Positions 25,244 to 53,810 of a stretch of DNA of 64,000 bases are shown here, piece by piece. Every line of letters starts with the position of its first letter. Within the stretch, counting starts at the first letter, position 1. Source of the DNA: an uncultured Acidobacteriota bacterium (GTDB taxonomy: Bacteria > Actinomycetota > Acidimicrobiia > Spongiisociales > ZC4RG35); contig CAVRWT010000003.1 in NCBI GenBank assembly GCA_963724825.1, forward strand, positions 183,807 through 247,806. Reading direction: 5' to 3'. A program made the position numbers and the translations under genes. A model generated the notes under the pieces. It ran no database searches. It was given only the letters and a program-made list of their open reading frames with translations, and had not been told where the DNA came from.

Positions 25244-25282
25244 TCCTTTAGCGTTGGGCCACCAAACGCCAGGAAAGCCTCG

Positions 25283-31443: not shown

Positions 31444-31465
31444 GGGATGATCAGTTTACGAGGGA

Positions 31466-33297: not shown

Positions 33298-33438
33298 GTA
33301 TTCCTTCTTGCGATCCCGTGTCGGGCCGAAACAGGGAGCGAGACTACCGGCAGACCAGCCATTTGCTATCGGCGGAACTTGCCCTCGCCTGTAAGGCGTC
33401 GCCGATCGCGGCCACTCGCCTGCTGAACTGGACCGAAG

Positions 33439-34340
33439 ATGACAGATGCCGTGAAGCTCTATGGAGTCCTCGTGACCTACGCCAGGACTGCCTCGCTCGC
33501 TGTCACGTTGGAGCGGCTTCGGGCACAGACCCGCCAGCTCGATCACCTCTATGTCGTGGACAACGGGAGTAGCCCCGAGGCCCGCCAACTCGTCGAGCAA
33601 TGCGCCTTCGCCGCCACCTATCTCGACGCCGGAGACAATGTCGGCCCGGCCGGTGGTTATGCCCTTGGCATGGAAACGATCCTCCAAGAGGCCAACGATT
33701 CCTGACTGGATCTTCCTTTTCGACGACGATGACCCGCCCTTCTTCGACGATGCCCTAGAGAACGCAGGGCTTTTCGCGGAACGCATGACGATGGCTCATC
33801 GAGAGGTTGGTGCGGTCGGCATCAGCGGAGGTCGATTCGACTTCGGCTCGGGCCGTGTGATCCGGATTGGCGACGCCGACATCAAAGGACCGGTCTCCGT
33901 CCACCACATCACGGGAGGCGGGCTGCCCGCCTATCGGGTCGGTGCCGTTCGACAGGTCGGCGTATTCCTGGCCGAGCTCTTCTTCGGCTTCGAAGAGCTC
34001 GAATACGGATTGCGGCTGACTGCTGCCGGCCACGGGTTGTTTGCCGACGGGGACGAGTGGGCACGGTCGGAAGTCGGTAAAACGGGAAGCCGGGCTCCTC
34101 CAATCCGAGGAGGACTCCGTCGCAGTGTCCGAAGCAGACCTCGCTTCGCCTCAGTGGGACCCCATGGCGTCGGTACTACAGCCTCCGCAACATGATCTAC
34201 TTGCTGCGCCGCCATGGCCGCACCGCCACCGCAATCAAGGTCGCTGCAAGCCGTGGCGTCGGGAAACCGCTCGCCAACATCGTCACCAGCCCTGGGCTGG
34301 CATGGGAATCAGCTCAGACTGAACTTGCGAGCGATCCGTG
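33439..34340 (+). pseudogene. Glycosyltransferase family 2 (rhamnosyltransferase-like) with at least three frameshifts
   Basis: 'VLVTYAR...YVVDNGSS' is ORF 33439..33705. 'DWIFLFDDDDPPF...' is ORF 33551..34195. The conserved C-terminus 'YYSLRNMIYLLRRHGRTATAIKVAASRGVGKPL' is in a third frame ending about 34340. Confidence 0.6.
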
Positions 34341-34380
34341 ATGGCTTCGGTGGCCGAATGGGGCGGACCGTCGAGCCCGG

Positions 34381-35158
34381 CTAACCGGAGTCGAACCAGA
34401 CCCGTTTCTGACCGGTGCCGGTGGCAAGCAGGTCCCCAACGCTGCGTGGCATGCAGCCCCTTTCCCGCGAGACCGACCAGGACTGCCTCCACCACGTCCG
34501 CCTTGCCGCCTGGCGGGTGTGGAATCCTCCTGGGCCGGGAGTCGGTGTCCAGCCATCGTGGAGCAAGACGACCGACCCGAGACCCGATTGCTCGACTGCC
34601 CGTCCCACGATCTCGTCGGTGCCCTTCTGATCCCAGTCGTGAGGATCGACCGACCACATGATCACTTTCATGCCCCGAGACCGCGTCATCAGAAAGCTGC
34701 TAATCGTTTGCGCCCCGTACGGCGGTCGGAAGAGCCTGATCGGGCCTCCAACCACGGCTGACAACCGGTCCCGGCCGCCGTGAATCCTGTCAGCCACCTG
34801 ACGGCTGCCAAGACGAGTCAAGTTGTCGTGGTTCGCCCCATGCAGGGCTGCCTCGTGGCCCTCGGCGACCACGCGCTCGCGCAATCTCGGGATATTGCTC
34901 GGCCCGCTCGGAGAGCATGAAGAAGGTCGCCGTGGCACGACGTTCCGCGAGCAGGTCGAGGACCGCGGGGGTGACCACGGGGTCGGGGCCGTCGTCAAAC
35001 GTCAGCGCAACGATGGGCTTCGTGGTACGACCGCTGTTATCGAGCCCAATGCCTTGGTCGCGAGCGGTGGAACCCATCCCCAACTGGCGCAACGGCGTCG
35101 GCAGACTCTGAGCTTTGCGCTCCACCTTGACGACTGCGTTGCGAACCCGATCCGGCAT
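34381..35158 (-). pseudogene. Polysaccharide deacetylase (CE4/NodB) with at least two frameshifts
   Basis: 'IVALTFDDGPDPVVTPAVLDLLAERRATATFF' is ORF 34790..35158. 'HGANHDNLTRLG...RLFRPPYG...VVLLHDG' is ORF 34381..34998. The tail 'GGKADVVEAVLVGLAG' is in ORF 34283..34657. Confidence 0.6.
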
Positions 35159-35276
35159 CTACCCCACCATTCCTCGACGCCCACGCCTCCCCGGCGCGAC
35201 AATCGCGATCCTACAAGAGGGGGTTCAAGCCACCCCAGCTTGACCTACCGGTTGTCTCCGTGAGAATGCGTGAGCC

Positions 35277-36264
35277 ATGACTTCGCCATTGGTAACTGTT
35301 GTGATCACCACCAAGGACCGCCACCAACTGGCTGACCGGGCCCTGGCCGGCTCTCCAGCAGACCTTCTCCGACCTCGAAGTGGTCGTTGTGGACGACGGT
35401 TCCACCCCTGCCTACGAGCCATCTGTCACCGATGGCCGGATCCGTCTTCTACGCAATGACTCATCTCGCGGCGTTTCCCGGCACGGAATGCCGCTCTTGC
35501 GGTCGCGAATGGGGAATGGATCGCCTTTCTCGATGACGACGATGCTTGGCGCCCTCAGATGCTGGAGGTGTCGCTACAGGCAGCAGCCGAGTCGAACCTC
35601 CCCGAACCGGTGTCGGTGCTCTCCGGAGCAGAGATCAGAGATCCCGATGGGAAAGTTCTGAGGACACGTTTCCCGCCGACTCTTTCCCGGGGACAGCACT
35701 ACTTCCTCGAAGACCTCTCCGAAGGTGGGAGCTTCCAGACCCACGCAACCTTGGTTGCTCCGACTGATGTGGTGCGGGCCATCGGTGGCTTCGACGAAGC
35801 GCTGTTGGCCAGCGTCCACGACGACTTCTACCTTCGCCTCAATGCGGTGAGCTCGATTCAGGGCACGCCGATCGTCACCTATGAGATCACAGCCCACCCT
35901 GGGTCACGGGTCTCCAAGTCCGTCCTGGCCCGAGCGGAGGCGATGGAATCGAACAGTCGCCAAACACAAGGAGAAGTTCAGCCAGCACCCGCGGCGCTAC
36001 GCCAAGTACTTGTCGATGATGGGAGCCACTTATCTGCGGGCCGGCAAATGGGGGCCGGCGGTCAAGGCGACGACACGTTCGATCGTGGTCGACCCGGGTC
36101 GTGGAGAGTCCTATCGCTGGTGGCTGGCGTCCCTTGGTGGTCCATGGACTCTCCGGGTCGGGCGCCGGGTCCTCGGTGAAGACACCGAGAAGGCCGAACG
36201 ACGAGTCAAGTATGCGGGGTCGGACCCGGAACCGGACCGGTCGCAAGCCGAAATGGAAGGCTGA
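35277..36264 (+). pseudogene. Glycosyltransferase family 2 with at least three frameshifts
   Basis: Fragments in four frames: 'PLVTVVITTKDRHQLADRAL', 'LEVVVVDDGSTPAYEPSVTDGRIRLLRNDSSRGVS', 'AARNAALAVANGEWIAFLDDDDAW...' (my translation, joining ORF 35559..36179), and 'AKHKEKFSQHPRRYAKYLSMMGATYLRAGKW...' (ORF 35881..36264). Confidence 0.6.
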
Positions 36265-36269
36265 CCATC

Positions 36270-36998
36270 GTGGCGAGATACAGAAAGACCGCGCGGCTGG
36301 TTCACACCCTGGGCCTCGACTCGATCGCCCATCGACTTGCAGGCTCGCTCTGCGAAGTCGCCACCGACCGACCGGTGTTTCATCTCACCTTCGACGATGG
36401 CCCCCACCCCGAGGTCACGCCCCGGCTTCTCGACCTCTTGGAAAGCCGCCAGGCTCCGGCAACGTTCTTCGTCCTCACCGAGGCGGCGGCGGCGAACCCT
36501 GAGCTGGCCCGGGAGATCTTGGGGCGTGGGCATGACATCGGGCTGCACAGCCGAACCCACCCCCGCCTCTCGACCGCCCCGTTCTCGACGCTCGTCGACG
36601 AGATTTGGAAGGCGCATCACGAACTCGAGGCACTCGTCGAGCGGCCCATTTCGCTCTTCCGCCCGCCCTACGGAGCTCACGGGATTCGCTCGACATACAT
36701 GGTCAAAGCGAGAGGGATGGAAACGGTGCTCTGGTCGGTCGACTCCGAGGACTGGAAGGGATTGCCGCCCGACGAGGCGTTGGACGCCAAGAAACTTCGC
36801 CCCGGTGGGATCCTGCTGCTCCACGACACCCCAGCCAGGGGTTCTGTAGTCGCCGATCAAGACCTTGGTTTGATAGACAAGGTGGAATTGACGGGGCTCT
36901 ATCTCGACGAGCTGAGCAGCCTTGGTCTGAGCCCGGTGTCCCTCGGCGACCTCAGATCAGGCGGCAGTCCTGTGCTCCGGGCCAAGGTCGCCAAGTGA
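36270..36998 (+). CDS. Polysaccharide deacetylase (CE4/NodB), intact
   Basis: 'VFHLTFDDGPHP', 'HSRTHPRL', 'LFRPPYG' and 'ILLLHD' present; 242 aa in a single frame. Confidence 0.8.
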   Translation: MARYRKTARLVHTLGLDSIAHRLAGSLCEVATDRPVFHLTFDDGPHPEVTPRLLDLLESRQAPATFFVLTEAAAANPELAREILGRGHDIGLHSRTHPRLSTAPFSTLVDEIWKAHHELEALVERPISLFRPPYGAHGIRSTYMVKARGMETVLWSVDSEDWKGLPPDEALDAKKLRPGGILLLHDTPARGSVVADQDLGLIDKVELTGLYLDELSSLGLSPVSLGDLRSGGSPVLRAKVAK

Positions 36999-37023
36999 TT
37001 GAGTTCCATCCGGCGAGCCCGAG

Positions 37024-37332
37024 TTGAACCGGCTGGCCATTGCCGAGAGTCTCTTCTCGACCCTCGACAAAGAGCACATCAGATACAGCCACTGGAAGAG
37101 CAACGAGCATCTAGTAGCCGCACTCCAAGGTCTGACCGATCTCGACCTGCTGGTGATGCCGGCCGACAAGGATCGATTCACGGCCATCGTCGCGGATCTC
37201 GGCTTCGTTCCCATGGTGGCTGCCGAGATAGAGATCCCGGAAGTGGAGAGCTACCTGGGATTCGATCCGGATACCGGCACGCTCCTCCACCTCGACGTCC
37301 AATACCGTCTGATCGTCGGTGAGCAGTTATAA
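37024..37332 (+). CDS. Hypothetical protein, nucleotidyltransferase-like N-terminal fragment (102 aa)
   Basis: 'HIRYSHWKSNEHL...GLTDLDLLV'. It ends at TAA. The next ORF (GTG, 37378) is in the same frame after two stops, so this may be a nonsense-split gene. Confidence 0.3.
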   Translation: MNRLAIAESLFSTLDKEHIRYSHWKSNEHLVAALQGLTDLDLLVMPADKDRFTAIVADLGFVPMVAAEIEIPEVESYLGFDPDTGTLLHLDVQYRLIVGEQL

Positions 37333-37377
37333 AACCATCACTTGCCGGTCAGGATTGGCTCTTCGGGTGGTAGTTAG

Positions 37378-38257
37378 GTGTCAGACCCCGGAAGGAAGGC
37401 CGAGGTCACCGGCTTCAAGGAGCGTGTCGTACTCGACACCGTCGACTGGCGTTACGTCCTCGACCGCAGACAGTCGCTCCGGAAACGACTCAGACAGCAC
37501 GAACGCCTCCGGCGTTATCAGGCGATCTCGAAACGGCTGGGCTTGTGGTTTCGCTCGACCTCAATGGCGAGGAGGCTCGGCTGGGGCATCCCGAAGAGGA
37601 AGCTGGCCGGAAAAGCCCCTCTGGTCGCCACGGTTGGCGCCGACGGTTCGGGCAAGAGCCGGCTGACCAAAGACCTGGAGCGATGGCTGGGGTGGAAGCT
37701 CGAGGTGCGACACGTCTACTTCGGCCAGCCCAAAGGCGGGGTGGTTTGGAGGCTGCTCAGCAAACCAGGGAGCCTTCACGCGCAAAGGTGGGGACAGTCC
37801 GGGCAGTATCCGCAAAGTGGCCACACGCACCGATACCTGGAAGTGGTTGTGGCTGGCCAGACACCGGCGTCGGCTGGCTCAGAAGGCGCGGGATGACACC
37901 CGGAATGGAGTGACCGTCATCGCCGAGCGCTTCCCGCTCGCCGAGTTTTACCCCATGAGCGAGCCGATGGATGGCCCGCGGCTTCAAGGGTCCTCAGGCG
38001 GTACTGCGAGGAGAGAGCTCGCCATATATCGAGGCATCGAGCCGCCCGACTTAACGATCATTCTCCAAACCGACTTGGGAACCCTCCGCGATCGCAAGCT
38101 CGATCTCACTCTCGAGGAGCACACAGCGAAAGTGGAGGCAGTGGCCGGACTGACGCCGGGTCCGGGTCGTGTCATCATCGACGCCGGTCCCCCATACGAA
38201 AGAGTCCTTCTCGAGGCAAAGGCCGCAGTCTGGGAGGCGATCCTTGCGACACGTTGA
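37378..38257 (+). pseudogene. P-loop NTPase/kinase-like protein, one frameshift near 37810
   Basis: Walker A 'VGADGSGKS' is in ORF 37378..37896. The continuation 'VTVIAERFPLAEFYP...LTIILQTDLG' is ORF 37817..38257. Confidence 0.45.
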
Positions 38258-38990
38258 GTTCCTTGGCCTGCCCGGGTCCGGGAAGACCACTCTCGTCACC
38301 AAGGTGGTGGCGGCCTTGGATGGTGCGATCGAGCTCGAGGATGCGGTGCGCTCGGCCGTCGCCGCCGGCGGCATCGATGCCACTTCCAGGACCGCAGCCC
38401 GGGTTTCAAGGTCGAGCTCGAGCCGTCTTTGGAAGAGCGCCTACGCCCGATCTACTGACCGCTTCGATGCACTGAAGAGGTTCCTCTCGGCGCATCCCCA
38501 GCTCATGGAGACCGTCCTCGCCGCTCAAAGGGAACGCCGTGATCGTGACCGCGGTCAGGACCTGGTCTTGGGGTGGGTGATGAATCTGTTCGCTCGATAC
38601 CAACTCGCCACCGAGGCCGAAGCTTCCGAGTTTCTGCTGATCGATGAAGGGTTCTGCCAGCGGGCGCTGGCCCTGTTTGGATACGGCTTCGCCCCGGAGG
38701 ATCAACCTCGCCTCAATGACTATCTCACCGAGATGCCGAGACCCGAGGTAGTCGTCCTGGTCGAGACGCCGCTCGCCAGATGTGTGGAGCGTCTCGACAA
38801 GAGAGGTTGGTCGGAGCGACTCATCGGGCTCTCGCCTGACGTTCGCCGCGGCTTCCTCGACACTTCGTTCGAGGTGTTGGGACAGGTGGCCGACCAAGCT
38901 GAAAGGCTGGGCTCCCGGGTCATCCGCGTTGACGGCGAGCAACCGGCAGACGTCGGAAGCCAGGCCGTGGTCGTTCTCCTCGCTGGCTGA
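38244..38990 (+). CDS. P-loop NTPase (sulfotransferase/kinase-like), TTG start inferred at 'MRHVEFLGLPGSGKTT'
   Basis: Walker A 'GLPGSGKTT' sits at the extreme N-terminus. The upstream part of ORF 38169..38990 overlaps the preceding gene. Confidence 0.45.
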   Translation: MRHVEFLGLPGSGKTTLVTKVVAALDGAIELEDAVRSAVAAGGIDATSRTAARVSRSSSSRLWKSAYARSTDRFDALKRFLSAHPQLMETVLAAQRERRDRDRGQDLVLGWVMNLFARYQLATEAEASEFLLIDEGFCQRALALFGYGFAPEDQPRLNDYLTEMPRPEVVVLVETPLARCVERLDKRGWSERLIGLSPDVRRGFLDTSFEVLGQVADQAERLGSRVIRVDGEQPADVGSQAVVVLLAG

Positions 38991-39099: not shown

Positions 39100-42025
39100 G
39101 TGGGGCTTCTCCAAACAACGGGCATGGGAGACAAATCAATGGGCAGCCGGATCGCTCCGGATGGGGGCACGCGTTTCTTCGTTTCGCTACTAGTCATCGC
39201 ACTGGTGGCATCAATGGTCCAATTCGTGGCGGTGGCACCGGCCTCCGCAGTGGCCGGAGATCTCGGCCCAACCATCGTTCCTGGGACCAGCACCGCTGCC
39301 CTTGAAGACGAGGACGGGCAATGGGATACCAAGAACCAACACCGTTCCTGGTTCGTGGAGAACCGCTGGGACGCCATTCTCCCGATGAAGTCCGTCGCCA
39401 ACGGCGGGGTTGCCTCCGTCGAATCGGCATGGTGGATAGTGAGAAGGCGATCCCCGAAGCCTTCGGGAATCAACCGATCACCACCGGCGGCGCTGAGGTC
39501 AGCGCCGCCCCCACCCACCGCCCGGACGTCTTCTGGGACGACACCGCAAACACTCTCTACATTCTTATGAGCGGCGCCGCCACCACCACCCTCTACGTCT
39601 ACACCTACGACGACGGTACCGACACCTACACCTTCTCCCACAGCTCCGACGTCCCCGATTTCGAGGCGTCCAACTCCCGGGCCGCGATCTTCAAGGACAG
39701 CAACGGCGACCTCTGGGCATCGAAGATGGATGGTGGCGGCCTTGACGTCAGTCGCTCCGGTGACAACGGGGTGTCCTGGTTGACGCCAGTCACCCTGACC
39801 TTGCCGGTGGACGAGGGTCAGACCGCGATCACCGAGGTTGGCGGCACCCTGGCCGTAGCCGCTGCCGAGAACGGAGATGGGCTCGACGTCGCCGAGGCCG
39901 GCCGCTTCTCCAAATACCTCTTCTACACCCTGCCGCTGGCTCAGGCCGCCAACTTTGCCAATGTCATCTACGGGACCGGGACCCTCACATTTACCGGTGT
40001 CGTCACGCCCGGTGAGACCGTGACCATCGGCTCTCGCACCTACCAGTTCGTCGCCACCATGGTCGGGGCGGTCGAGAACGACGTCCTAATCGGGGGCAAC
40101 GCTCGAGCGAATCTGGCGTTGGCGATCAACCACGAGGGAACGCCCGGACTGCAGTACCACGCCGACACCGAAGCCCATCCCGACGTGTTCGCCGAGGACA
40201 CGGGGACACTGCTCCTCACCGCCAAGGCGTCGGGCACGGAGGGGAACGTCGCTACCACAGAGACCATGGTCAATGGCGCTTTCGGGGCGGCGACCCTCAC
40301 CGGCGGCGCCTCGACATGGACTCGAGAGAACGTCCCCCTCGCCCAGATCGGTGTCGACCCCGACCAACGTGGCCGTGTATCACGCTGATGACGAGATCAG
40401 TCTGGTGCGGAGCGACCGACATCTACATAGCCACCGAGACCTCACGCACTTGCACCGGAGCCGGCTGTGGCAACTCGGGGTACTTCACGTCAAACCCACA
40501 GGTGATCCTGTACAAGCGGACCTCGGCGGGGGTGTGGACTCAGCACAACGTGAAGCTGGATCAAGCCAGCTCGACGCTGGACCGCAAGCGTCCGGTAGTG
40601 ACCATTCTCGACACCAACCTCTACATCTTCTCGATCGACAACAACCGGACCAACAGCGCCTACTGGGTCAGATCACTCACCACCGCCCTTCCCACGGGGT
40701 CATGGGGAGGGACCAACGGGTTCGCCTTCAACACTCAGTTCGAATCGTTTCCGAAACAACATCCTCCCCCGGGACCCGGTGACTACCGCTCAGCGGCTCC
40801 CGGTCCTGATCGACTGGGCCAACGAGGATCCGAGTCAGGACGCCACCATTTGGCAAACCAGCTTCCCCAACTCGGGCAACCAGGTGCCCGGCGTGTTCGC
40901 CGGTGAGGACAAGACGGTCAACCTGACACCGGCCACCAGTCTCGGCGGTGTTGTCACCAACGACGGCTGGGCGGTGCGGTGACCTCGCAATGGACTGTGG
41001 TCTCCGTTCCTCCCACAGGATCGGCAATCATCACCAACCCGGCGAGCCCGACCTCGACCGTGTCCTTCACCCTGAGCGGGGTATACGTGTTGCGTCTCAC
41101 GGCGACCGAGACCGTGGCGAACACGCTGACCAACTCCGACGACGTGACGATCAACGTGACCGGGATCAACAACACCCCACCGACAGTCTCGGTGGCCGAG
41201 CCTGACAACGGCGACAGCGCCACGCCGGGCTCGGTGGTGTTGTTCCAGGCCACAGCCAGCGACCCCCAGGATGGTGATATCTTCAGGTGCCATCGTGTGG
41301 ACCTCGAGTCGCGACGGAGTCATCGGGTTCGGTGGATCCTTCGCCGAAGACCAATCTCAGCACCGGAGTCCACGTCATCAAGGCCACCGTCTCCGATGGT
41401 GAGTTCTCGGTGTCCTCGCCGAACATATCCCTGACCATTGGGACCGGTGGCGGCGGAGGAGGTGGCGGTGGTGGCACGCCGGACAACCCGTTCATCGACG
41501 ATGACGGCAACGTGTTCGAGAACGCCATCGAATGGCTTTATGCGCAGGGGATCACCCAGGGATGCAACCCTCCCACCAACAACAGGTTCTGCCCCAACGA
41601 CTTCGTGACCCGGGGACAGATGGCCGCCTTCCTGGTTCGAGCCCTGCACTACACGGCAGGGGGCAACACCAATTACTTCGTCGATGACAACGGGAACGTC
41701 TTCGAAGGCGCGATCAACAAGCTGCGCACCGCGGGCGTGACCCTGGGCTGCAACCCCCCGACCAACAACCGGTACTGCCCCAACGACTTCGTGACCCGGG
41801 GACAGATGGCCGCCTTCCTGGTCCGGGCCTTTGGCTACTCGGCCGGTGGGAGCACCAACTACTTCATCGATGACAACGGAAGCGTGTTCGAGACCGCCAT
41901 CAACCGGTTGCGCACCGCGAGTAACCCAGGGCTGCAACCCGCCAGCCAACAACCGGTACTGCCCCACTGCCAATGTCACCAGGGGCCAGATGGCCGCCTT
42001 CCTGAAGCGGGCACTCGGTGGTTAG
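39100..42025 (+). pseudogene. Large secreted surface protein: signal peptide, BNR/sialidase-like repeats, PKD/Ig-like domains, poly-Gly linker, three Cys-containing SLH-like repeats; at least five frameshifts
   Basis: Signal 'FFVSLLVIALVASMVQFVAVAPASA'. BNR motif 'SRSGDNGVSW'. Ig-like 'TINVTGINNTPPTVSVAEPDNGD'. 'GGGGGGGGGG' linker. SLH-like 'VFENAIEWLYAQGITQGCNPPTNNRFCPNDFVTRGQMAAFLVRAL' x3. Fragments are in ORFs 39100, 39321, 40316, 40779, 40979, 41287 and 41831. Confidence 0.6.
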
Positions 42026-42080
42026 AGCTCGGATCTGATCATCGAGTGCCCGTACACGGGCTAGAGAGGGGAAACAGGGG

Positions 42081-44413
42081 ATGTTTGGGAGGATGAGGCG
42101 GCGGCTGACGCTGGTCGGGTTGGCGTGTTCATTGGTGGTGACCGGAGCGCTCCCCGGTGGCCTCGGGATTGCACTGGCGATCGACGATCCGGCCGATTTG
42201 GTGCAGGTGGTCGACACCACGACTGCTTTCACTCCGAGTTCGCCCGGGCCGGCGGATGGCGTGTCGACCGGCACATGACGGCTTGAACGCAAGCCTGATC
42301 GTGGTCGACTCCGATACGACCACCCGGGGACCTTCTTCGTTCGACCTCACCACCGGTCTCATCCGCTACACCAGCGACCCCGCTCTTGGCGGGGTCAACC
42401 ATGACGCCACAGGGTGTCGCCTATGACAGTGCGAGCGGGACTCTGTTCATTTCCAGCGGCAGCAGTTCGACGTCTTCCTTTTCCACGCCGGGACAGATCG
42501 AAGATTCGACACCGGCGACGACAGCGCCGTGACCCAGATCAAGTCGGCAGTGACACGGAGGACCCGGCCTTCAATCCCGACAATGGTCATCTCTGGTTCT
42601 GGACGGTGAGACCGGAACCGTTCTATGACATCGACCCCGTCGTGAACGGATTTGGTGATCTAGACGACACGATCACTCCGTTTTCCATACCTCAGGATGA
42701 CGACGGCAACCTTCCCGGGACTGGGAAGGGCTTGCCTACGACCCGGTCAGTCACAACCTGATCGCCGGCGCCAAGTTCAACAACCAAATCATCTTCGAGT
42801 TCACCACCGCCGGGGTCTACGTCCAGCAACACGACACCTCGAGCCTCGGCGATCTGCAACAGATATCGGGTCTCGGCGCCCAACCCGAAACCGACCCGTA
42901 CCCGGTCACGTACTGGATCGCCGACCGAGGGGTCGAGGGCTCTGTTCAAGATGGCAAGCTCTTTCGAGTCACCTTTGGCCCAGCTCCGGTCCTGCCCCCG
43001 GCCCCGCCGGTGCTGACAACGATTCCCCCGATCCCGGCAGTCAACGAGGGGACACTGGTCACTTTCGACGCCAACGCCACCGACCCGAACATCGCTGACA
43101 CGTTGACCTTCTCCATCCATCCCACGCTCCCGGGGTCACCCCCCGGCGCGACGATCAACGCCACCACCGGAGTGTTCACCTGGACCCCGACCGAGGCCCA
43201 AGGGCCTGGGTCCGGCGCCTACATAATCAGAGTGGTCGTCAGCGATGGCGCCGAGACGGACTTCCAGGATGTGTCGATCACTGTCAACGAGGTCAACTCG
43301 CCGCCGGTGATCACCGGCGGCCCCTTCACTCCACTCCACGGTGAGGGGGAGGCAGTCACCTTTGACATGCACGGCACCGACTCCGATCTCCCGGCACAAA
43401 CCAAGACCTGGAGCGCCACTGGGCTGCCTCCAGGGCTGGGGATCAACACTGCCACCGGGCGGATCTCGGGAACCGTGAGTGCCGGCGCCACTTCTGGTTC
43501 GCCGTACTCGGTGCAGGTCACGCTCTCCGATGGAATCGCCCAGGACATCGAGAACTTCGATTGGACGATCCAGAACACCAATCCACACGCCCCAGTGTTG
43601 AACCCCATCAGCAACAAGACCATCACCCAGGGTTCGGCGTTGACCTTGAAAGCGACCGCCAGCGATGCGGATAGTGGCCAGACTCTGACGTTCTCGCTGG
43701 TGAACCCACCCGGCGGGGCCACCATCTCGAGCAACGGCAATTTCAGCTGGACTCCAAGTCAGGCCGGCAACTACCAGGTGACAGTGAAGGTGACCGACAA
43801 CGGAAGTCCGGCCCGGAGCGACAGCAGGACATTCACGGTGACCGTTCAGGCCCAGCCTCCAGTGAATATCAACCCGTTCGTCGATGACGACGGAAGCGTT
43901 TTCGAGAACTCGATCGAGTGGCTCGACTCCCAGGGAATTACCTCTGGATGCAACCCCCCAATGAATGATCGCTTCTGCCCCGATGACTACGTGACCAGGG
44001 GCCAGATGGCCGCCTTCCTGGTCCGGGCACTCCACTACAGCGACGGGGGCAACGTCAACTACTTCATCGACGACAACGGTCACGTCTTCGAGAACGCGAT
44101 CAATCGGCTGCGCACCGCTGGGGTGACCCAGGGATGCAACCCACCGACCAACAACCGCTACTGCCCCAATGCTTTCGTCACCCGGGGACAGATGGCAGCG
44201 TTCCTGGTCCGGGCGTTCGAGTACACCGCTGGGGGGAGCACCAACTACTTCATCGATGACAACGGGAACGTGTTCGAATCGGCCATCAACCGATTGAGGA
44301 CAGCCGGGGTCACTCTCGGTTGCAACCCCCCTGTCAATGACCGGTACTGCCCCAATGCCTTGGTCACCCACGGACAGATGGCGGCCTTCCTAAAGCGCGC
44401 CCTCGACGGTTGA
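42081..44413 (+). pseudogene. Secreted surface protein: signal peptide, YjiK/phytase-like beta-propeller region ('WEGLAYDP'), three Ig/cadherin-like domains, three SLH-like repeats; frameshifts confined to 42250-42760
   Basis: Signal 'LTLVGLACSLVVTGALPG' (ORF 42081). The broken N-terminal third is spread over ORFs 42157 and 42414. The intact 467-aa C-terminus (ORF 43010..44413) includes 'FVDDDGSVFENSIEWLDSQGITSGCNPPMNDRFCPDDYVTRGQMAAFLVRAL'. Confidence 0.6.
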
Positions 44414-46112
44414 CATGGGCCGTCGTGTGTAGGCGAGCTTTGGGGGGTGGGTCGGTTCTCGTCGTTCTTCTGGCCGGGCTGCTCCTGCTTGTCGGGACAG
44501 GCGTTGCCTGGGCGGACATCTCCGTTAGCCGATATCTCGAGGTCGAAGCCGATCAATGGGAGGTCTGGGCGCCCGGGCCTTCGGGGGTGGCTCGGAAAGA
44601 CGCGAACACGATGTTCGTGGTCGACACCGACCGCAACAACTACGCGGAATGGGAAGACGACGGGATCAACCTCTGGGAGATCTCCATGACCGGGAGCGTG
44701 ATACGAACCGGGGCACTCTCATTCCGCGAGCCCACCGGCGTCGACTTTGTGCCCGCCACAGGCACCCTGTATGTGTCTTCCGACAGCACGCGGGTGGTGT
44801 GTATGCCATAACCGCAGGTGGTGACGGCAATTTCGGGACCGGAGACGATGTCGAGCACCTCATAGACATAGGGAGCGGTGACGTCGAAGACCCCGTCTAC
44901 GACCCAGTGTCCGGCGACCTCTTTGTACTGAACGGCGGCAACAGCGGAGTGATCTACCGGGTAGACCTGCCTTCTGAAAGTGTGCTTCCCAACCCGATCG
45001 AGCTGTCCGACTACGGGGCCGACTGGGAGGGCCTGGCACTGACCCCTGACGGGAATCTGTTGGCCGGCAACAACTTGGGCCAGGAGATTCATGTCTTCGA
45101 CAAGGCGGGCAACCATCTCCAAGTGATCGACCTTGCGGGGATCAACGACGGCGAATCCGGTGGCGATGAGCTCATTCGCATCTCTGGACTTGGTGTGTCC
45201 ACCCCTGGTGCGGGCGGTACCGGATACGACATCTGGGTCGCCGATCGTCAGGCGACATGCAACTGCGACGAGCCCGACAACATCGACGGACGGGTGTGGC
45301 GGCTCAGCACCGATGGGACACCGCCACCTCCGACTTCCACCTCCTCGTCCTCTTCGTCTTCCTCGTCGTCCTCCTCAAGCAGTAGTTCCTCTTCTAGTTC
45401 CAGCTCCAGCAGCGAGTTCGACCTCCAGTTCGACATCGTCCACGACGTCTTCAACCACATCGAGCACGACCTCGACCACGACCACCACAACGATGCCGAC
45501 CACGACAACCACCAACCCCGGCACGACCACAACTACCACCCAGCCCAGCGGCGGGGGTGGCGGGAGCAACCAGAACCCGTTCACCGATGACAACGGGTCG
45601 GTCTTTGAGAACTCCATCGAGTGGCTGGCGGCCCAAGGGATCACGCAGGGTTGCAACCCACCGGCCAATACCAAGTTCTGCCCCAACGACCAGGTCACCC
45701 GAGGCCAGATGGCGACTTTCCTGGTCCGAGCCCTCGACTACCCGAGCACCAACAACGATTGGTTCATTGATGACCAGGGCATATCTTCGAAGGTGCGATC
45801 AACCGACTCCGTGAGGCCGGTGTGACCCAGGGTTGCAACCCGCCAGACAACAACCGCTTCTGCCCCAACACCTACGTGACACGTGGGCAGATGGCCGCCT
45901 TCATGGTTCGGGCCTTCGGCTATTCAGGTGGAGCCTCGACCAACTACTTCGTCGATGACAACGGCCACATCTTCGAAGGCGCCATCAACCGGCTTCGCAC
46001 CGCCAAAGTGACCCTGGGCTGCAACCCGCCGGCCTACAACCGATACTGTCCCGACGAATACGTCACCAGGGGACAGATGGCGGCCTTTCTGAAACGGGCC
46101 CTGGAGGGCTGA
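44410..46112 (+). pseudogene. Secreted surface protein: signal peptide, YjiK-like propeller ('ADWEGLALTPDG'), poly-Ser/Thr linker, three SLH-like repeats; at least three frameshifts
   Basis: Fragments are in ORFs 44410..44811, 44556..45590, 45133..45825 and 45822..46112. The last junction looks like 'DDQGHIFEGAINRLREAGVTQGCNPP' with one base missing near 45780. Confidence 0.6.
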
Positions 46113-46145
46113 CCACCGGTCGCTGCCACCCGCCAGGAGTCACGC

Positions 46146-47132
46146 TTGGCCAGTCAAGACAAGAACCAGGACCTGCCGACTCTCGGGGTTGTCATACCAA
46201 CCATCGGTCAGCGGCTCGAGCTGAAACGGATGCTGGAGTCAGTCCTCGAACAGACTCGCCCCGTCCACGCGATACGGGTCGTCGTCGACGCGGCGGACAC
46301 CTCGCTCGTCGAAGGCATCGTCTCCCAGCTCAGCGGCCAACTCGGCGCCACGGATATCGAGGTGCTCAGCACCGGTGCCAATCGTGAAGAAGGGGCGTAT
46401 CTGGTCGAAACGGGCTACGGGTATGCGGTCAATCGCGGCCTCGAGCGTCTCGAGACCGATCTTGTCGCCTTCCTCGACGACGACGATGAGATCCGTCCGA
46501 CCCACTTCGCCGGTTTGGAGGCGGCCCTCGATCCCACCGCAGGACGAGGTGTTGCCTACGCCCGGGTACTGATCCGCCCCACCAGCGGCAAGGAAAGATT
46601 GTTTCCCGAAGGCGAAATGCCCGAAGGCAAGATCGGCATCGAGCTTCTCATCGACCCCCAGGCAGTCCTGCTCCCGGCCACGCTCATACACCGCACGGTG
46701 CTCGAGAAGACAGGCCCCCTCGATCAGACACTCGACCGTCTCGCCGACACCGACATGCTGGTCAGGCTGGGTCTCGCCACCCTTATCGCTGCGGTGGACG
46801 ATCCGACGTACGTTTATTACCGGATCTCGCGCAGAGATGTGGTGAGCGAACGGGTGTTGACCGAGAGGTCCCGGCTGCTCCACAAACACCACAACCACCT
46901 CAGCTGGCGTCAACGAGTGATGTTCTGGGACGTGCAGGCCCGGTCAACCCTCCGCTCGGGAATGGAAGAACTGGGCCGTGAGGCCGGACACGAGGTCGTA
47001 TCGGCCTTCTGGCCAAACCCGCCAAGACTCCTGGTCGATTGGTACGTGGCCATCCGTCGCCGCCAGACCCCGAAATTCGTGACCTCAGCCGCCAAAAGAT
47101 TCAACCGGCTTTTCTCGTTGAAAGGCAGATGA
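46146..47132 (+). CDS. Glycosyltransferase family 2, intact
   Basis: 'LGVVIPTIGQR' and the 'FLDDDDE' DxD motif; 328 aa in one frame. Confidence 0.7.
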   Translation: MASQDKNQDLPTLGVVIPTIGQRLELKRMLESVLEQTRPVHAIRVVVDAADTSLVEGIVSQLSGQLGATDIEVLSTGANREEGAYLVETGYGYAVNRGLERLETDLVAFLDDDDEIRPTHFAGLEAALDPTAGRGVAYARVLIRPTSGKERLFPEGEMPEGKIGIELLIDPQAVLLPATLIHRTVLEKTGPLDQTLDRLADTDMLVRLGLATLIAAVDDPTYVYYRISRRDVVSERVLTERSRLLHKHHNHLSWRQRVMFWDVQARSTLRSGMEELGREAGHEVVSAFWPNPPRLLVDWYVAIRRRQTPKFVTSAAKRFNRLFSLKGR

Positions 47133-48087
47133 TCACAAGCCCAACCGACTTCAACGAGCTCCTGGTCGCCCTTCAAGAACAGTTCGCCTGGCCGAGAACA
47201 CGCGGTGGCATACGAGGAAATCTCGACGTGGGAACGTGAGCGCTCGGGATCAATGTTCCACCGCCTACACGGCCTACCTGAAGGTCCCGATGTTGTAGTG
47301 AAAACAGTGCGTAGTTGGACAGCTCTCGAAGCTGAATCCACCTTCGAAGCCATGGTTGACCTGGCGGACACCCTCGATGAGGCAAGGATCGCCGGAGCCG
47401 AAGCGGTGCGACCCTTAGCCTGGTCCGGTGAGCCGCCGACGCTTGTCATGCCCTTTGTTGAAGGAATCGACTTGATTTCCCTCCTCCGCCAACCCGACCA
47501 CCCGGCCTGGCGAAATGAGGTCGCGGTATGGCCGAGATCAGCCGGAGGAATGCTCGCCGCGTACCACACCAGGCATCGCGCTCCCGGGTCTGCCACAGCA
47601 GCAGCCAGCGAAGTCAAAGATCTGGCAAACCGATTCCGGATCGGCCGGACCTTCGACGGGTCGACTGGAGCGACCGACTCGCAGGCTCGTACGGCGACTT
47701 CGGCCCCGGGAACCTCCACGCCTCCGTCGACGGCGATCTCTACCTGCTCGACCCACCCTGACCCCGACTCCGGGCCCCATACACCGTGACCTGGGGAATT
47801 TCATCTTCGAGCTGCGACGCCAACTCGCCGGACGGGGGTTCACTCCGAGCCCTCCGATCCCCGGAAATTTCGAACGGCTGTGCGATTCCTTCCTTCAGGG
47901 CTATTCCGATGCCCGGGGCTCGACCCTCGACGACACCGATCTGGCATTGATCGCGCTCTTCGAGCTGCGGCGCGCCGCCGGCATGGCCCGCAAGCGCTTT
48001 CCCAGGCGTCCCGGCGACGCCCTCTGGTTCGCACGCTCCGCAATGGCGAGCCGGCGTGAGGTGGTGGCGAGTCCAGATCATCCGTAG
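47129..48087 (+). pseudogene. Aminoglycoside-phosphotransferase/protein-kinase-like (APH fold) gene with at least three frameshifts
   Basis: The ATG overlaps the GT2 stop (AGATGA). Fragments 'MITSPTDFNELL', 'AYEEISTWERERSGSMFHRLHGL...VVVKTV', 'YGDFGPGNLHASVDGDLYLLDPP' and 'PIHRDLGNFIFEL...' lie in four frames (ORFs 47039, 47205, 47528, 47515). Confidence 0.55.
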
Positions 48088-48116
48088 AAGGGGGCAATCT
48101 CGGTTTCCAGTGCTCG

Positions 48117-49791
48117 TCACCAAGTAGCTGAAAAGCGGTGCCATCCGCGTTCTGAACCCGGAACACCGACGACCGCATGCCGAGTTCCCAGGTCGAAGTC
48201 CTCGGGCTGTAGGTCACAGTTCACGAAGTCGTAATGCGCCCGGGACGCGCTCCCGTCGTCGTCGGCCACCAGCACCGAACCGAAATCGCAGTTCATGAAT
48301 CGCACCGGCACCTCGGGTTGGGTGGCGTGCTTGTCGATGATCAGCGTGGCTCCGTTACTGGTGACGTTGGTCCAGGTCTGGGTGTCGGCCTCCCCCTGGG
48401 CGCTCTCGCTTCCCAGGGCGTGAGAGATGATGGCCACACCGTTCTCAAGGAGGGTCAGATCGTCGTACTGATAAGAGTTCTCGTAGGCCCCATGCTCGAT
48501 GCCGGCCTTGCCGTTGTAGTACCCGACGAACCCTTGACGGGGTGGATCTCGGAGTTGTTCTGCCAGACAAACACCCCGTTCGAAAGATTGTTGTGACCGA
48601 CGTTGTTCTCGAACTTCCAGACATCCCCGGCGCCTTCTGGCCAAATGAACCCGGAGCTCTCCGAGTCGGGCTCGCCGCGGACACCGACGGCAACCGAGTT
48701 GCTCACGGTCATGTTCGAGCCGTTGCCGAGAAAGAACCCGGCGAGCCGAAACTTGTTGCCTTCGACGCCAAGGTCAACTCCGGCCACGACCGCCCTATCC
48801 CAGATCAGGTCGTCGGTGTCGTTGGTCGGATCGTCCTCCTCAGGCGGGGGGTCCCACCAGTAGGCCTCGTTGAGCACGTTGTAGGCGATCGTGTCGCGGA
48901 AGGTGATGCCGTGGGAGGCATGGGGGACGAAGGCGTGGTTCCCGGCGTCCCGGACCACCACACCTTCCACGATCGATCCCCGACTCCCCTCGCCCGCCAT
49001 GTGGAAATGGAGCCCGTAACGACCGGTCGCGGTCGCTGTCGCCGAAATGTGGGGCCATGTAGCGGAGGGCGACGTAGCGGATGGTCTGGGGCTGGGTGGA
49101 GCGGAGGAAGACGTGGGCTGAAACCCTCCGGTGTCCCTTCGATCCGAACATTGCGGGTCAGGTTCATCAACTCAGTGGGGTAACCCAATTCATTGGGTGG
49201 CGGAGTCGATGTCACTTCCTGGAATACCAAGTAGTCGCCTTGAGTGTTGGGAGCGGCCATCACCTCATCGCCCTGCCACGACGGGTCGTATTCGTAGCCC
49301 CAGGCAGGTTTCTCTTCCCCCTCGAGATCCAACCGACCGTCTCCCATCACCCACAGCCCGACATCTGTAGGCACCGGGTCCATCCCGCCACCGACGAAGG
49401 CCGAGTTGTCGACGCCCTGAAATATCAGTGCGTGCTCGATGTCGCCCGATGCCGGCTTCATCACCAGCTCCCCCAGAACCAACACGTTTCCAGATGCGGT
49501 CAGCGTGATCGACTTGTTGGGGTCGAGCACCCAGGACTCGCCAGCGGGGACCGTGAAACCTTCGGGGTAATCCTGGTCGGCGCTGATCACGACTTGGGTG
49601 AGACCCGCTGTCCCCCCGCTGATCGATGTGGTCGACTGATGATCGTGCGAGGTGGTGGTTGAGCCTTGGACCTCGGTCGTCGATGTCGAAGTCGAATCGA
49701 CCGCTCCCGAGGTGCAACCAACAACCACCATCAGCAAGGCGCCGATGACTGCTCGACCTTGGCGGTGTGACTTCATGTTGCCAAAGCACAC
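48117..49791 (-). pseudogene. Secreted right-handed beta-helix (pectate-lyase-like) protein, paralog of 49773..52079; at least two frameshifts; no SLH-like tail
   Basis: Lipobox 'LLMVVVGCTS'. 'NNVGHNNLSNGVFVWQNN' beta-helix motif. Fragments are in ORFs 48805..49791, 48455..49000 and 48117..48644. Confidence 0.55.
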
Positions 49792-52079
49792 CAGATCGAC
49801 ATCGGGGCGTCATCGGGTGCCGCCACCGACCGCTGGCCGTTGAAAGTGACCGCCAGGGCGTTGCCACCGGATCGCGCCACCAGGGCCGATGACGTTGCAG
49901 AAGCGGTGGAGCTTCCTTCGATGGCCCGTTTGAGGAAGGCAGCCATCTGCCCTCTCGTCACGTAGTTGTCGGGACAGAACCGATTGTTCGTCGGCGGATT
50001 GCACCCCTGGGTGACTCCAGCGGCGCGCAGCCTGTTGATCGCGTTTTCGAAGACGTGACCGTTGTCGTCGACGAAGTAGTTGGTGTTGCCGCCAGCGTCG
50101 TAGCCGAATGCTCGCACCAGGAAGGCCGCCATCTCGCCACGGGTCACTCTGCGATCAGGACAGAACCTGGTGCCTGAGGCGTTGCACCCCTGGGTCACCC
50201 CGGCCGCACGGAGCTTGTTGATCGCTGCTTCGAAAACGTGGCCATTGGTATCGGTGAAGTAGTCGCCGCTGCCTTCACTGCTGTATTTGAGGGCCCGCAC
50301 CAGGAACGCCGCCATCTGTCCCCTGGTCACGTAGTCGTTGGGGCAGAAACGGCTGTTGGCCGGTGGGTTGCAACCCTGGGTGATCCCCTTGGTGGCCAGC
50401 CAATTGATGGCGGCCTCGAAGACGTGCCCGTTGGTGTCCGAGAATCCGCTGCCAGGCACGCTGCCGTTGTAGAAGGCGTTGATGCTGGTGACGGTCCCGT
50501 TCCCCATCAGCCGATAGGCGGTGCCGTTGGAACGCTGGACCCGGAACACCGAATCGGCCCGGGAGCCGGACAGATCGAAGTCGGAAGGCTCCAGCCCGCA
50601 TCGGATGAAGTCGTATTCGCTCGGCTCAGGCCCTCCCGAGTCGTTGACGTCGACCTTGCCCAGGTCGCAATCGACGAATCGCACAGGTCGTTCGGCGTTT
50701 CGGGCGTGCTCATCGATGACCAGGGTCCCACCGTTGGTCTTGATCTTCGACCAGATCTGGGTGTCGGCTCCGGCATCACCAGGCTCGCCCATGGCGTGGG
50801 AATGAATCGCCGCGCCGTTGCCGAGCAAGGTCAGGTTCTTGTAGACGTAGGAGTTGGTGTAGGCACCGTGCTCGACGCCGGCCTGGGCGTTGTAGTAGGC
50901 GACGTAGCCGTCGATCACGTGGGGCATCTCGTTGTTCTGCCAGACGAAGATCCCGTTGGTCTCGTTGTTGTGGGCCCGGTTGTTCTTGAAGGTCCAGGTC
51001 GCCTCGTCGTCCTCAGGCCAGATGTACCCGGAGCGGCTGGCGCCGTCCTCCCGTCTGAGACCGACCACCACCGAGTTGGTGACCGAGACGTTGTCTCCTT
51101 GACCGAGGTAAAAGGCGCCGAGCCGATGAGTGTTGCTCGGGTTGCTGGTGGCCGTCATGATCGCCACCACTGCGCGATCGAAGCTGATGTCGTCGGACGA
51201 CGTGCCCTCATCCCACCAGTAGGCCTCGCCTTTCACGTTGTAGGCGATGGTGTTCTTGAAGGTGATCCCGTTCGACATGTGGGGCACGAAGGCGTGACCC
51301 TTGGTGTCGCGGATGAGCAGACCGTCGACCACGCTCCCACGACTGCCGTTCCCCGCCATGTGGAAATGGATCCCATAACGCCCGGTGATGTCGCTGCTCC
51401 CGAAGTCGGGAGCCATGTAGCGGAAAGCGGCGTTCTTGATCGTCGAGGGGACCGAGGACCTGATGAAGACATGGGTGTAGCCGGTGGTGGTTCCTTCAAC
51501 CCTGACGTTTCGAGTCAGATTGAGCAGTTCGGCGCTGTAGCCGAGGGCGTTCTTGGCCGGGGTCGAGGTGACTGTCGGAAACTGGTGTAGTTGCCGGGCT
51601 TGTTGGGAGCGGCCACGACGGTGTCCCCGGCCCACGAAGACTGATAGGTGTAGGACCAGGCCGGCTTCGACTCCCCCTGGAGGATGATCTTCCCGGCGCC
51701 CATGACCCAGAGCCCGACATCGGTGGCGATCGGGTCCATCCCCCCGCCGACGAAGTTGTTCTCGTTGATCCCGGTGAAGCGAAGGAGGTGAGTGATGCTG
51801 CCGTTGGCCGGCTTCATGATCAGAGTGCCGCGAACGATGATGTTCGCCGCTCGAGGTCACGGTGGTGTTGACGTTCGGGTCGAAGGTGACGGTGGTGCCG
51901 GCGGGGACCGTGTATCCAGCACTGCCCAGGTTGACCGTTCCCGACCAGGTGATCGTCGCCGCTTCGGCTACCGGGGTGTTGGTGGCGAAGTGCACGCCAA
52001 GGACCATCGAAATCGCCCCCAGCATGGCGAGCAACAGGAATCGCACCGGCCAAGCCCGGAAGCGTGGTGAGTCAGTCAT
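49773..52079 (-). pseudogene. Secreted right-handed beta-helix (pectate-lyase-like) protein with three C-terminal SLH-like repeats; two frameshifts near 51600-51830
   Basis: True start 'MTDSPRFRAWPVRFLLLAMLGAISM' within ORF 49773..52628. The segment 'MKPANGSITHLLRFTGINENNFVGGGMDPIATDVGLWVMG' is in another frame (ORF 51515..51817). 'NNRAHNNETNGIFVWQNN'. SLH-like repeats 'GCNPPANSRFCPNDYVTRGQMAAFLVRAL' x3. Confidence 0.6.
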
Positions 52080-52289
52080 CACATTGGCTCCTTCTCCGCT
52101 CCGGACCGAGGCCTCCCATACACATGCACTCCCATGGGCCCGCACCGGCACGCCGGACTCGGTCAAACCGAACCATAACTGGGATTTCGGACATCGTGAC
52201 ATACCCGCAATCGCAAGCCGGTAACCCAGATCTGGGTCTGTTGGTCGAACCACCTCGGAGTTAGCATTTTCCGGGAACTGGGAGGTTTC

Positions 52290-52957
52290 ATGGCGGAGGG
52301 CACCACTGAGCGTGGTCACATGGCTGTTCTGAGCCGTCTCGTGTTCCGGGTGTTGCTCCCGGTCACCGCGGTGTTCGTCCTTGTCATGGGCGTCGCCTAC
52401 ACCAGCGACGTGCCGGTGACCGACCTGCTTCGCGACCCCAGCGCCACTCTCGAGGGCCCCTGGTACATCGGGCTGGTCTCGATCGCCGGGGTTGCCCTGT
52501 GGGCGGCTGCGGCGGCGATCTGCATGATCTGTATGAGTGCAAACCCGACTCCCGGCGAGCGCTCGCTTCTCTTCGCCGGCGCGGTCACCAGCGTGATTCT
52601 CGGTGCCGACGACGCTTTCCTCGGGCATGAGGCCATCAAGAACATCATCGGCATCCCCTCGCCGATCACCATCGGCGATCTACGGGATCATCACCATTGT
52701 CCTGTTCTGGCGGGCCTGGCCCTATCTGAGAACCAGGCCGGATCTCGTGGTATTCGGGATGGCAGTTGCTCCTTTTCGGGATATCTGTGGTGCTTGACGC
52801 CGCTGGTGAAGCCGATCTGCCAACACCTCCCTACTCGGCAGTGATCGAGGACACGGCGAAGTTCCTCGGTCTGGTCACCTGGGTCACCTTCTTCGCCGGT
52901 GTCGGCAGAGATTTGATCCGGGGAGGGGAACAAGCTGATCGCTACGCGGCCGCTTGA
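52290..52957 (+). pseudogene. Hypothetical polytopic membrane protein, two frameshifts
   Basis: Hydrophobic segments continue across ORFs 52290..52844, 52603..52797 and 52766..52957. Confidence 0.35.
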
Positions 52958-53031
52958 GCTTCGCTCTCAGTCACCGACGACCACATCGCTGAACCGAAGG
53001 CGTAGGGTGGCTGCTCTCAACACCATAGGAG

Positions 53032-53810
53032 GTGACTATGAGACGAGCAGCCCTGATCATCTCGGTCTTCGCTGTGCTATTGGCGATGACGGCGGCGGGA
53101 GCAGTCGTCGCCGGCTTCCCCGACGTTCCCGACGACCACGTCCATGCCAACGGCATCGAGTGGGCTGCCGAGAACGGGTTGATGGTCGGATACAACAACG
53201 GCAACTTCGGGCCTGACGACCCGGTAACCCGAGGCCAGTTGTCCACCATCTTCCTCCGTTACGACAACACGCTCGATGACTCGGGCAGCGGTGGTGGAAC
53301 CCAGGGACCTCCTGGGCCGGAGCTCCCGGAGCACCCGGAGCACCCGGCGACGACGCCCAGGTGACGGCGCAGGTCGGAATCGGTGTCATTCCGCTGCTCG
53401 ACGGGCTCACAGTCGGAGGCCCGATCGCGGACCAATCACACCCCACTCCCGGGCGCGACGCTTGTCGCTCGCACGCCGGTGACTACATGATCGAGGTGTA
53501 CGGCGCATTTCAGATCCCCGGGGACGGCGCAGCCCGTGGAATGTGACCTCTTCGGAGTGGGAGTAGTGGTGTGGCCTCAGCTCACGTTCTGGATCGACGG
53601 CACTGACGGACAGTCGACGGCCCTACGACAGTGGTGAGGGACTCATCTCCCCCAACGTCCTGATGCCCGACTGCAACGACAGACACGCCAATGTGTCGGG
53701 TGAGATAGTGATCAGCCTCGACGCAACGACCAGTGTCGGCTTGATCGCCTTTGGCTACCCGAGCGACGATCGGTGCGCACTGCAGGGGACGGGATGATCC
53801 AAGGCGGCGG
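53032..53810 (+). pseudogene. Canonical SLH-domain protein with collagen-like G-A-P repeat and small C-terminal domain; several frameshifts
   Basis: Signal peptide, then SLH 'FPDVPDDHVHANGIEWAAENGLMVGYNNGNFGPDDPVTRGQLSTIFLRY'. '(GAP)3GDDAQ' appears in a shifted frame. Coding-like segments continue in three frames to about 53810. Confidence 0.45.

Follow-up and report, generated by a model that had tools for sequence, protein, structure and literature searches.

What is understood of wall anchoring by S-layer homology (SLH) domains comes almost wholly from Firmicutes, whose exported proteins avoid cysteine. The SLH trimers solved there, namely those of Bacillus anthracis Sap (3PYW/6BT4), Paenibacillus alvei SpaA (6CWC) and Geobacillus stearothermophilus SbsB (4AQ1), are covered by PF00395 and PROSITE PS51272 and consist of three tandem two-helix repeats of ~55-60 residues, placed at one end of exported proteins with diverse passengers. 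SLH domains and the pyruvyl transferase CsaB, for which PF04230 serves as a proxy in published surveys, have also been noted in "a few" Actinobacteria (Mesnage et al. 2000, as represented in a paper citing it; Witwinowski et al. 2021, bioRxiv 10.1101/2021.05.31.446380). These surveys, the older one as far as it is represented there, score PF00395 and PF04230 by presence or absence only, and describe no Cys-bearing SLH subfamily. A third known use of the domain is found in the OmpM/Slp-type tethers of diderm Terrabacteria (OmpM1 SLH, 8BZ2), in which a single SLH is combined with coiled-coil trimerisation and a porin fusion. Here we analyse a 64-kb window (the whole stretch of DNA under study, positions 183,807 to 247,806 of contig CAVRWT010000003.1) from an uncultured bacterium assigned to the Acidimicrobiia. 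It carries an island of surface-protein genes (genes A to E, Table 1), four of which end in a triplet of SLH repeats whose loops are bracketed by two cysteines.

These repeats are bona fide SLH domains and not a novel module, because they pass the Pfam threshold, match described SLH proteins in both profile and predicted fold, and conserve the functional Gly and Arg. PF00395, whose gathering score is 20.8, gives 37.1 bits for the isolated triplet of gene B, 30.4 bits for gene B and 59.6 bits for gene E, and the family is found at E≤1e-4 in 62 of 64 relatives. A profile was made from an alignment (A1) that combines the triplet, 112 homologues from databases and one more repeat of gene E. It matches SbsB (4AQ1, E 2e-13) and Sap (3PYW/6BT4/9G93, E ~2e-10) in their SLH parts over all three repeats, and weakly the SLH of OmpM1 (E 0.009). 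From the same alignment AlphaFold2 predicts two helices per repeat, arranged as in the three-pronged spindle of the Firmicute trimers, with the loop confidently placed (predicted local distance difference test, pLDDT, 95.5; predicted template modelling score, pTM, 0.89). When this predicted structure was compared with the PDB by Foldseek, the only significant matches were SLH trimers, headed by that of Sap (3PYW; template modelling score, TM, 0.80; root-mean-square deviation 2.1 Å over 173 columns; 25% identity) and including the SpaA SLH with bound pyruvylated N-acetylmannosamine (ManNAc) ligands; the similarity to OmpM1 (8BZ2) is insignificant. Unlike OmpM, the window proteins carry three SLH domains in one chain and no porin. 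No dedicated NCBIfam model was found for the repeat; only the SLH tail of inl_like_NEAT_1 matched, far below its cut-off.

Ligand contacts point the same way (residue numbering after Blackler et al., PMC6081394). In SpaA, pyruvate is bound by the backbone of SLH-Gly29, the second Gly of the GIIxG motif, the second main contact being made by SLH-Arg43 in the TRAE box (PMC6081394). Here the first motif is present as G-[IV]-T-x-G and the second as T-R-G-Q, and both residues are found in 100% of 236 repeats from other genomes. Likewise, across 64 triplet proteins taken from other genomes, no variation is seen in the six Cys, the three Gly preceding them or the three Arg. The rest of the box is variable: TRGQ is commonest within the Cys subfamily, which also has TRGE, TRAQ, TREQ and TRAE; TRGQ is shared with the Cys-free SLH protein encoded at 53032; the SbsB box is TRGD in the profile alignment; and the solved SpaA has TRAQ and TVEE boxes (PMC6081394).

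An earlier interpretation made from the letters alone, hereafter the sequence-only reading, had presented the repeat as a novel SLH-like module defined in part by a TRGQM substitution. The kinship with SLH stands, but the module passes the PF00395 threshold (30.4-59.6 against 20.8) and is thus not new, and the box does not define it. PF00395 is in fact precomputed on almost all of the best 120 of the 3,628 relatives retrieved at E≤1e-5 from a protein search of 90%-identity clusters; in other words, the domain is already annotated as ordinary SLH. The repeat consensus given in the same reading was correct, and holds in the 236 repeats of other genomes as well as in the window. Its count of 15 copies in five or six genes was too high. 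A six-frame motif scan and a hidden Markov model (HMM) trained on ten window copies agree on exactly 12 copies, forming four triplets in four genes (A, B, C and E), with exactly three repeats per gene. The repeat has a core of ~54 residues and a period of ~62 residues, and the copies score 101-124 bits each against their own HMM, far above chance. In gene A, the third repeat is divided by a net frame shift at ~41918, of a length compatible with a 2-nt deletion. A weak 13th match (22 bits, 53131-53259) falls inside the single canonical, Cys-free SLH that had rightly been pointed out at 53032.

What distinguishes these repeats from those of SbsB is the loop directly following SLH-Gly29, which reads C-N-P-P-x-N-x-x-[FY]-C-P and is 3 residues longer, the sole systematic indel between A1 and SbsB being a 3-residue gap in SbsB opposite this loop. 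The first Cys comes right after SLH-Gly29 and the second just before a conserved Pro. Both are kept in all 12 window copies, including the middle repeat of gene E, whose loop is shorter by one residue (GCNASGTRFCP). In the triplet of gene B the pairs are C27 with C36, C89 with C98 and C151 with C160. They are also present in 363 of 363 full repeats from 80 related loci, at spacings of 8 (343 repeats), 7 (3) or 5 (11) residues, and in 436 of 437 repeats from 141 representatives of 50%-identity clusters. By position in the repeat, G24, C25, P27, C34 and R41 are 100% conserved in the 236 repeats of other genomes, and N26, P28, N30 and P35 97-99%. The Cys pair is therefore, as the sequence-only reading had it, a conserved addition to the domain, and homologues retain it. 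We found no description of a Cys-bearing SLH variant in 8 million full texts, most subscription journals lying outside the search, and nothing relevant on SLH in connection with Acidimicrobiia, conserved cysteines or disulfides; for LysBT1, a Firmicute prophage endolysin with SLH, no disulfides are reported (PMC12285257). The new part is thus a modest structural variant, namely a subfamily whose N-P-P-x-N loop is longer and flanked by Cys, within a domain already labelled SLH in databases.

We infer that the two cysteines form an intra-loop disulfide stapling the loop, because the pair never loses one member while loop length changes, and because the proteins are exported in a phylum that oxidises exported Cys pairs, exported actinobacterial proteins having even-numbered Cys and Dsb-type oxidation (PMC2823432). 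The corresponding connecting loop of SpaA borders a ligand groove, adopts variable conformations and affects how the ligand is bound (PMC6081394); in the solved SLH trimers of Firmicutes this loop is flexible. A stapled Pro-rich loop would pre-organise or rigidify one wall of each ligand groove, and the near-invariant N-P-P-x-N leaves room for direct contact with the ligand. Such a staple would suit Actinobacteria, with their oxidative folding of exports, as opposed to Firmicutes, which exclude Cys from exported proteins. It would also amount to a naturally occurring test of the flexible loop that lines the groove and, in SpaA, governs the binding of ligand.

The subfamily is large. An exhaustive HMMER search of 1.84 billion cluster representatives (50%-identity clusters) gave 90,596 matches at E≤1e-3, 34,156 at ≤1e-10 and 5,479 at ≤1e-30. 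Among the best 120 relatives from the 90%-identity clusters, those with names are called "S-layer homology domain(-containing protein)", and some come from NCBI entries for Acidimicrobiia bacteria or metagenome-assembled genomes (MAGs). Scanning one genome per GTDB species gave at least 599 stretches, with at least 577 of them confirmed, and the locus analyses reported here use the best 80. Closed Acidimicrobiia chromosomes are among the carriers (e.g. OZ244213.1 and OY970200.1). All 80 come from assemblies of uncultured organisms, mostly labelled Acidimicrobiia, Acidimicrobiaceae or Actinomycetota, with a few carrying another or no phylum label, and several loci often come from one genome. 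They contain 143 open reading frames (ORFs) with the repeat, 124 of them with exactly three copies; the block is C-terminal in 87 ORFs and near the N-terminus in 32. Multiples of three also prevail among the 141 cluster representatives (three repeats in 131, six in 6 and nine in 1, or 138 in all; five in the remaining 3), one of which, P0170, is 2,852 residues long.

Passengers in the 64 triplet proteins comprise Big_9, cadherin, PKD, fn3 and He_PIG domains and PD40/DPPIV propellers, but also S8 subtilases, M15 peptidases, SpoIID, GSDH, pectate-lyase-like and purple acid phosphatase domains, and LRR. Because these passengers are so diverse, the module is best seen as a general-purpose wall anchor of the lineage, and the glycan-processing proteome proposed in the sequence-only reading is only partly supported, since the anchor is shared by proteases, peptidoglycan enzymes, dehydrogenases, phosphatases and adhesin-type domains. 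Since the related loci often contain SLH genes in tandem, the island in the window is typical.

Taken together, these data are best explained by a standard SLH wall anchor with a pyruvate-bearing secondary cell-wall polymer (SCWP) as ligand and a Cys staple in each repeat, a reading to which we give roughly three chances in four. The island would encode Sec-exported surface proteins, four of them ending in a standard SLH trimer. Their three repeats, judging from homology and predicted fold, would pack as a three-pronged spindle, with SLH-Gly29 and SLH-Arg43 lining the inter-repeat grooves; these grooves would hold the protein non-covalently on a peptidoglycan-linked SCWP, most probably pyruvylated. 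Signal-peptide-like N-termini are present in genes A, B, C and E, and the sequence-only reading was right to take these for secreted proteins, with the cell wall as the likeliest place of display. Compared with the Firmicute trimers, the box here is mostly TRGQ, the best-matching hosts are uncultured Acidimicrobiia and the ligand is a putative one. As in the SLH/CsaB Actinobacteria, many SLH proteins are encoded and PF04230 lies near some of their genes. Two related loci, in two different Acidimicrobiia MAGs (L041:3913-6591, + strand, and L052:1-2571, - strand), encode fusions of ~860-890 residues with an N-terminal glycosyltransferase family 2 (GT2) domain and a C-terminal PS_pyruv_trans domain (PF04230, 61 and 82 bits), no more than 10 kb away from Cys-SLH genes. 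These fusions are candidates for making a wall-polymer ligand that is pyruvylated, and their position supports such a ligand without proving it. In the window itself, a cell-envelope glycopolymer cluster adjoins the island upstream, and would possibly supply the ligand of these anchors.

Several observations weigh against this reading, and they concern the ligand as well as the state of the genes. In SpaA, the aromatic SLH-Trp13 stacks on the ManNAc ring (PMC6081394). In the Cys-bearing repeats, by contrast, numbered backward from Gly29 through a gap-free helix, V (47%) or I (32%) occupies position 13, and F (80%) or H (16%) position 14. Because of this replacement, and because N-P-P-x-N is 97-100% conserved, the ligand could be different from pyruvylated ManNAc. 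Furthermore, a csaB-type gene, which the sequence-only reading had proposed to look for, did not appear in Pfam scans of the larger window ORFs: no PF04230 was found in ~60 stop-to-stop segments, among which frameshifted fragments could hide one and which come from a 64-kb, hence small, part of the genome. In this respect the window departs from the SLH/CsaB Actinobacteria, and in a narrow motif screen PF04230 was near only 2 of 79 related loci. All this would also be expected if the C-N-P-P-x-N loop and the loss of Trp13 had changed the specificity of an otherwise ordinary SLH trimer, directing it to some other wall component of Acidimicrobiia than an SCWP containing 4,6-pyruvylated ManNAc. 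The conservation of N26, P27, P28 and N30 exceeds the needs of a simple staple, and SLH specificity does differ by lineage, OmpM of Negativicutes being reported to use cadaverinated peptidoglycan (bioRxiv 10.1101/2021.05.31.446380). Against a changed specificity, however, the two residues in contact with the pyruvate carboxylate, Gly29 and Arg43, show no variation in any of the three repeats, and the PF04230 fusions lie beside Cys-SLH genes in two loci. Trp13 is moreover not universal in the family, since SbsB has Gln and no Trp in the matching column of the profile alignment, and SbsB is reported to bind pyruvylated SCWP. We thus consider a different ligand somewhat unlikely. That the loop is a ligand wall re-engineered for another polymer, or a redox-sensitive attachment releasing surface enzymes under reducing conditions, appears unlikely to us; if true, the entire surface proteome of an abundant, large class of uncultured Actinobacteria would be presented by way of a hitherto uncharacterised SLH-SCWP variant. 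The cysteines might also be free thiols or a metal-binding pair, as strict co-conservation of two Cys is seen at metal sites too. We judge this quite unlikely: the proteins have the signal-peptide-like N-termini of exported proteins, Actinobacteria oxidise exported Cys pairs (PMC2823432), each repeat offers only two ligands with no conserved His or Cys partner, and the pair survives shortening of the loop from 8 to 5 intervening residues. Finally, identity to solved SLH trimers is merely 17-25%, as might be expected of a new domain resembling SLH by chance or convergence, but this is scarcely credible and is refuted by a Pfam score above the curated threshold, profile matches to SbsB and Sap with E of 1e-13 to 1e-10 over three repeats, the Foldseek match at TM 0.80 and the conservation of the functional Gly and Arg.

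The state of the genes is the other difficulty. The sequence-only reading missed the frameshifts: every surface-protein gene of the island is interrupted in frame in this assembly, and the genes are presumed to be intact in the organism. Gene A shows at least four frame changes in 2.9 kb (ORF fragments in frames 0/2/1/0/1), gene B is shifted in its N-terminal part, and gene C has shifts in the passenger, in the Ser/Thr linker and at ~45760. For gene D, its translation and a tblastn search with a contiguous orthologue give the frames -2/-3/-1/-3/-1, and 51515-51817 of gene E lies in another frame. Such a pattern could mean that the island consists of decaying pseudogenes whose anchors no longer function. 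Against this, breaks are also found in ordinary genes throughout the window. A luciferase-like monooxygenase is split (25244-25846 / 25792-26265), and the N-terminal part of the Pfam profile is absent from the open frame for a proline racemase, a glycosyltransferase family 8 (GT8) protein, a GT2 and a polysaccharide deacetylase; split or shortened metabolic and envelope genes lie at 25244-26265, 28935-30135, 30637-31251, 34384-35001 and 35460-36176. In addition, the protein stays highly similar to the repeat model on both sides of the breaks. A syntenic island from a separate metagenome assembly (L001; ENA ERZ25039492), which has 73-87% nucleotide identity to the window, has its breaks elsewhere: it reads without interruption through gene D and through the triplet of gene A, and its genes B and E are split. 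The orthologue of the gene A triplet in this related organism (P0005, 83% amino acid identity) is uninterrupted. As the breaks are window-wide, metabolic genes included, and occur at other sites in the syntenic island, the frameshifts look like indel errors of a long-read assembly and not like pseudogenisation. We thus reject decay as the main explanation and regard it as very unlikely. Such indel errors, apparently spread over the whole assembly, would affect any gene call on the window, and the Ser/Thr run of gene C, where a change of frame falls, is probably prone to them.

Of the loci compared, only the syntenic island matches the window at the DNA level; none of the 79 species-representative loci does. 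Its flanks align with those of the window island, and it has a GT2 gene at the matching place (14919-15896). Divergence between the two islands is uneven, with 91-96% protein identity for gene E and parts of gene D, 80-90% for the SLH triplets and 50-77% for the passengers of genes A and B, which suggests that some of the passengers exposed at the surface evolve fast or are exchanged. The C-terminal ORF of gene A (41287-42096, frameshifted) is identical to a public database protein (P0021) encoded on a 274,222-nt contig.

No new mechanism is opened by these observations, as the function is already predicted by homology and the domain already labelled. They indicate that uncultured Acidimicrobiia, which are common in sampled soil, sediment and water metagenomes, probably use one stereotyped Cys-bearing SLH anchor, borne by proteases and enzymes that remodel the wall as well as by propellers, beta-helix enzymes and proteins resembling adhesins. 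An HMM of the subfamily would flag the surface proteome of Acidimicrobiia MAGs and would serve as a clean lineage marker, both modest uses.

Table 1. Features of the window related to the Cys-SLH island (HMM scores refer to the repeat model trained on window copies).
Feature	Position	Strand	Description
Gene A	39100-42025	+	Signal peptide (…LLVIALVASMVQFVAVAPASA/VAG), passenger, weak PKD/Ig-like segments, poly-Gly linker, C-terminal Cys-SLH triplet
Cys-SLH triplet of gene A	41491-42019	+	123.8, 120.4, then 26.6 + 70.1 bits (third copy split)
Gene B	42081-44413	+	Signal peptide, frameshifted N-terminal part, three He_PIG/Big_9/cadherin-like Ig domains, Cys-SLH triplet
Cys-SLH triplet of gene B	43877-44410	+	118.1, 123.4, 113.5 bits; intact; chosen for modelling
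Gene C	44410-46112	+	Signal peptide (…LLLLVGTGVAWA/D), passenger, Ser/Thr-rich linker, Cys-SLH triplet
Cys-SLH triplet of gene C	45580-46109	+	117.9, 104.1, 119.2 bits
GT2 gene within island	46146-47132	+	Glycos_transf_2 at 5e-10
Gene D	48117-49791	-	Beta-helix paralogue of gene E; CEMIP_beta-hel 1e-8; without SLH triplet
Gene E	49773-52079	-	Signal peptide (…NTPVAEA/AT), right-handed beta-helix passenger, Cys-SLH triplet, 47-residue tail
Cys-SLH triplet of gene E	49914-50444	-	119.0, 101.1, 120.4 bits
Small secreted protein	53032-53364	+	One canonical Cys-free SLH (…GLMVGYNNGNFGPDDPVTRGQL…), then Pro-rich region; Pfam SLH 47.1 bits
Cell-envelope glycopolymer cluster adjoining island	30637-36995		GT8, ABC-2 permease and ABC ATPase, two polysaccharide deacetylases, GT2 (Pfam)

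Pfam supports some of the passenger assignments made in the sequence-only reading and not others. The Ig/cadherin-like call for gene B (He_PIG, 1e-33) and the beta-helix call for gene E (CEMIP_beta-hel, 3e-11) stand. The BNR/sialidase call for gene A does not, as its passenger (39306-40906) has no Pfam match even at E≤5, the weak matches of this gene being to Big_7/PKD. Nor does the YjiK-like propeller of gene C, for which a search to E≤5 gave sub-threshold traces only (Secretin_N_2, E 0.058; Phytase-like, E 0.09); the latter is the sole trace pointing toward a propeller, and the passenger may be propeller-like.

Immediately before the SLH triplets of gene C and gene A come long low-complexity linkers (Ser/Thr-rich, 45350-45570, and poly-Gly, 41440-41480, respectively), and the ATG of gene B at 42081 is preceded by a purine-rich stretch. 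The N-terminus of gene D resembles a lipoprotein signal with a lipobox (…LLMVVVGC), and the neighbouring paralogues D and E thus seem to differ in surface attachment, by a lipid anchor and by SLH, respectively. The small SLH protein at 53032 runs on into a Pro/Glu/His-rich stretch (GPPGPELPEHPEHP…), and ORF fragments with high GC content at third codon positions occur in other frames up to ~53797, so that 53032-53797 may be one longer, frameshifted gene. At 10544-16677 the window holds a cytochrome c maturation (System I) cluster with an ATP-binding cassette (ABC) ATPase and CcmC/CcmF-type proteins (Cytochrom_C_asm, CcmF_C), in which 16090-16677 encodes a thioredoxin-like AhpC-TSA/Redoxin protein, probably an extracytoplasmic thiol-disulfide oxidoreductase of CcmG/ResA type. 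Small ORFs flank the island at 37003-38987 and 47205-48087. The latter are two ORFs in shifted frames that lack a Pfam match, and within the former, 38154-38987 shows matches of P-loop/AAA-type, kinase-like character.

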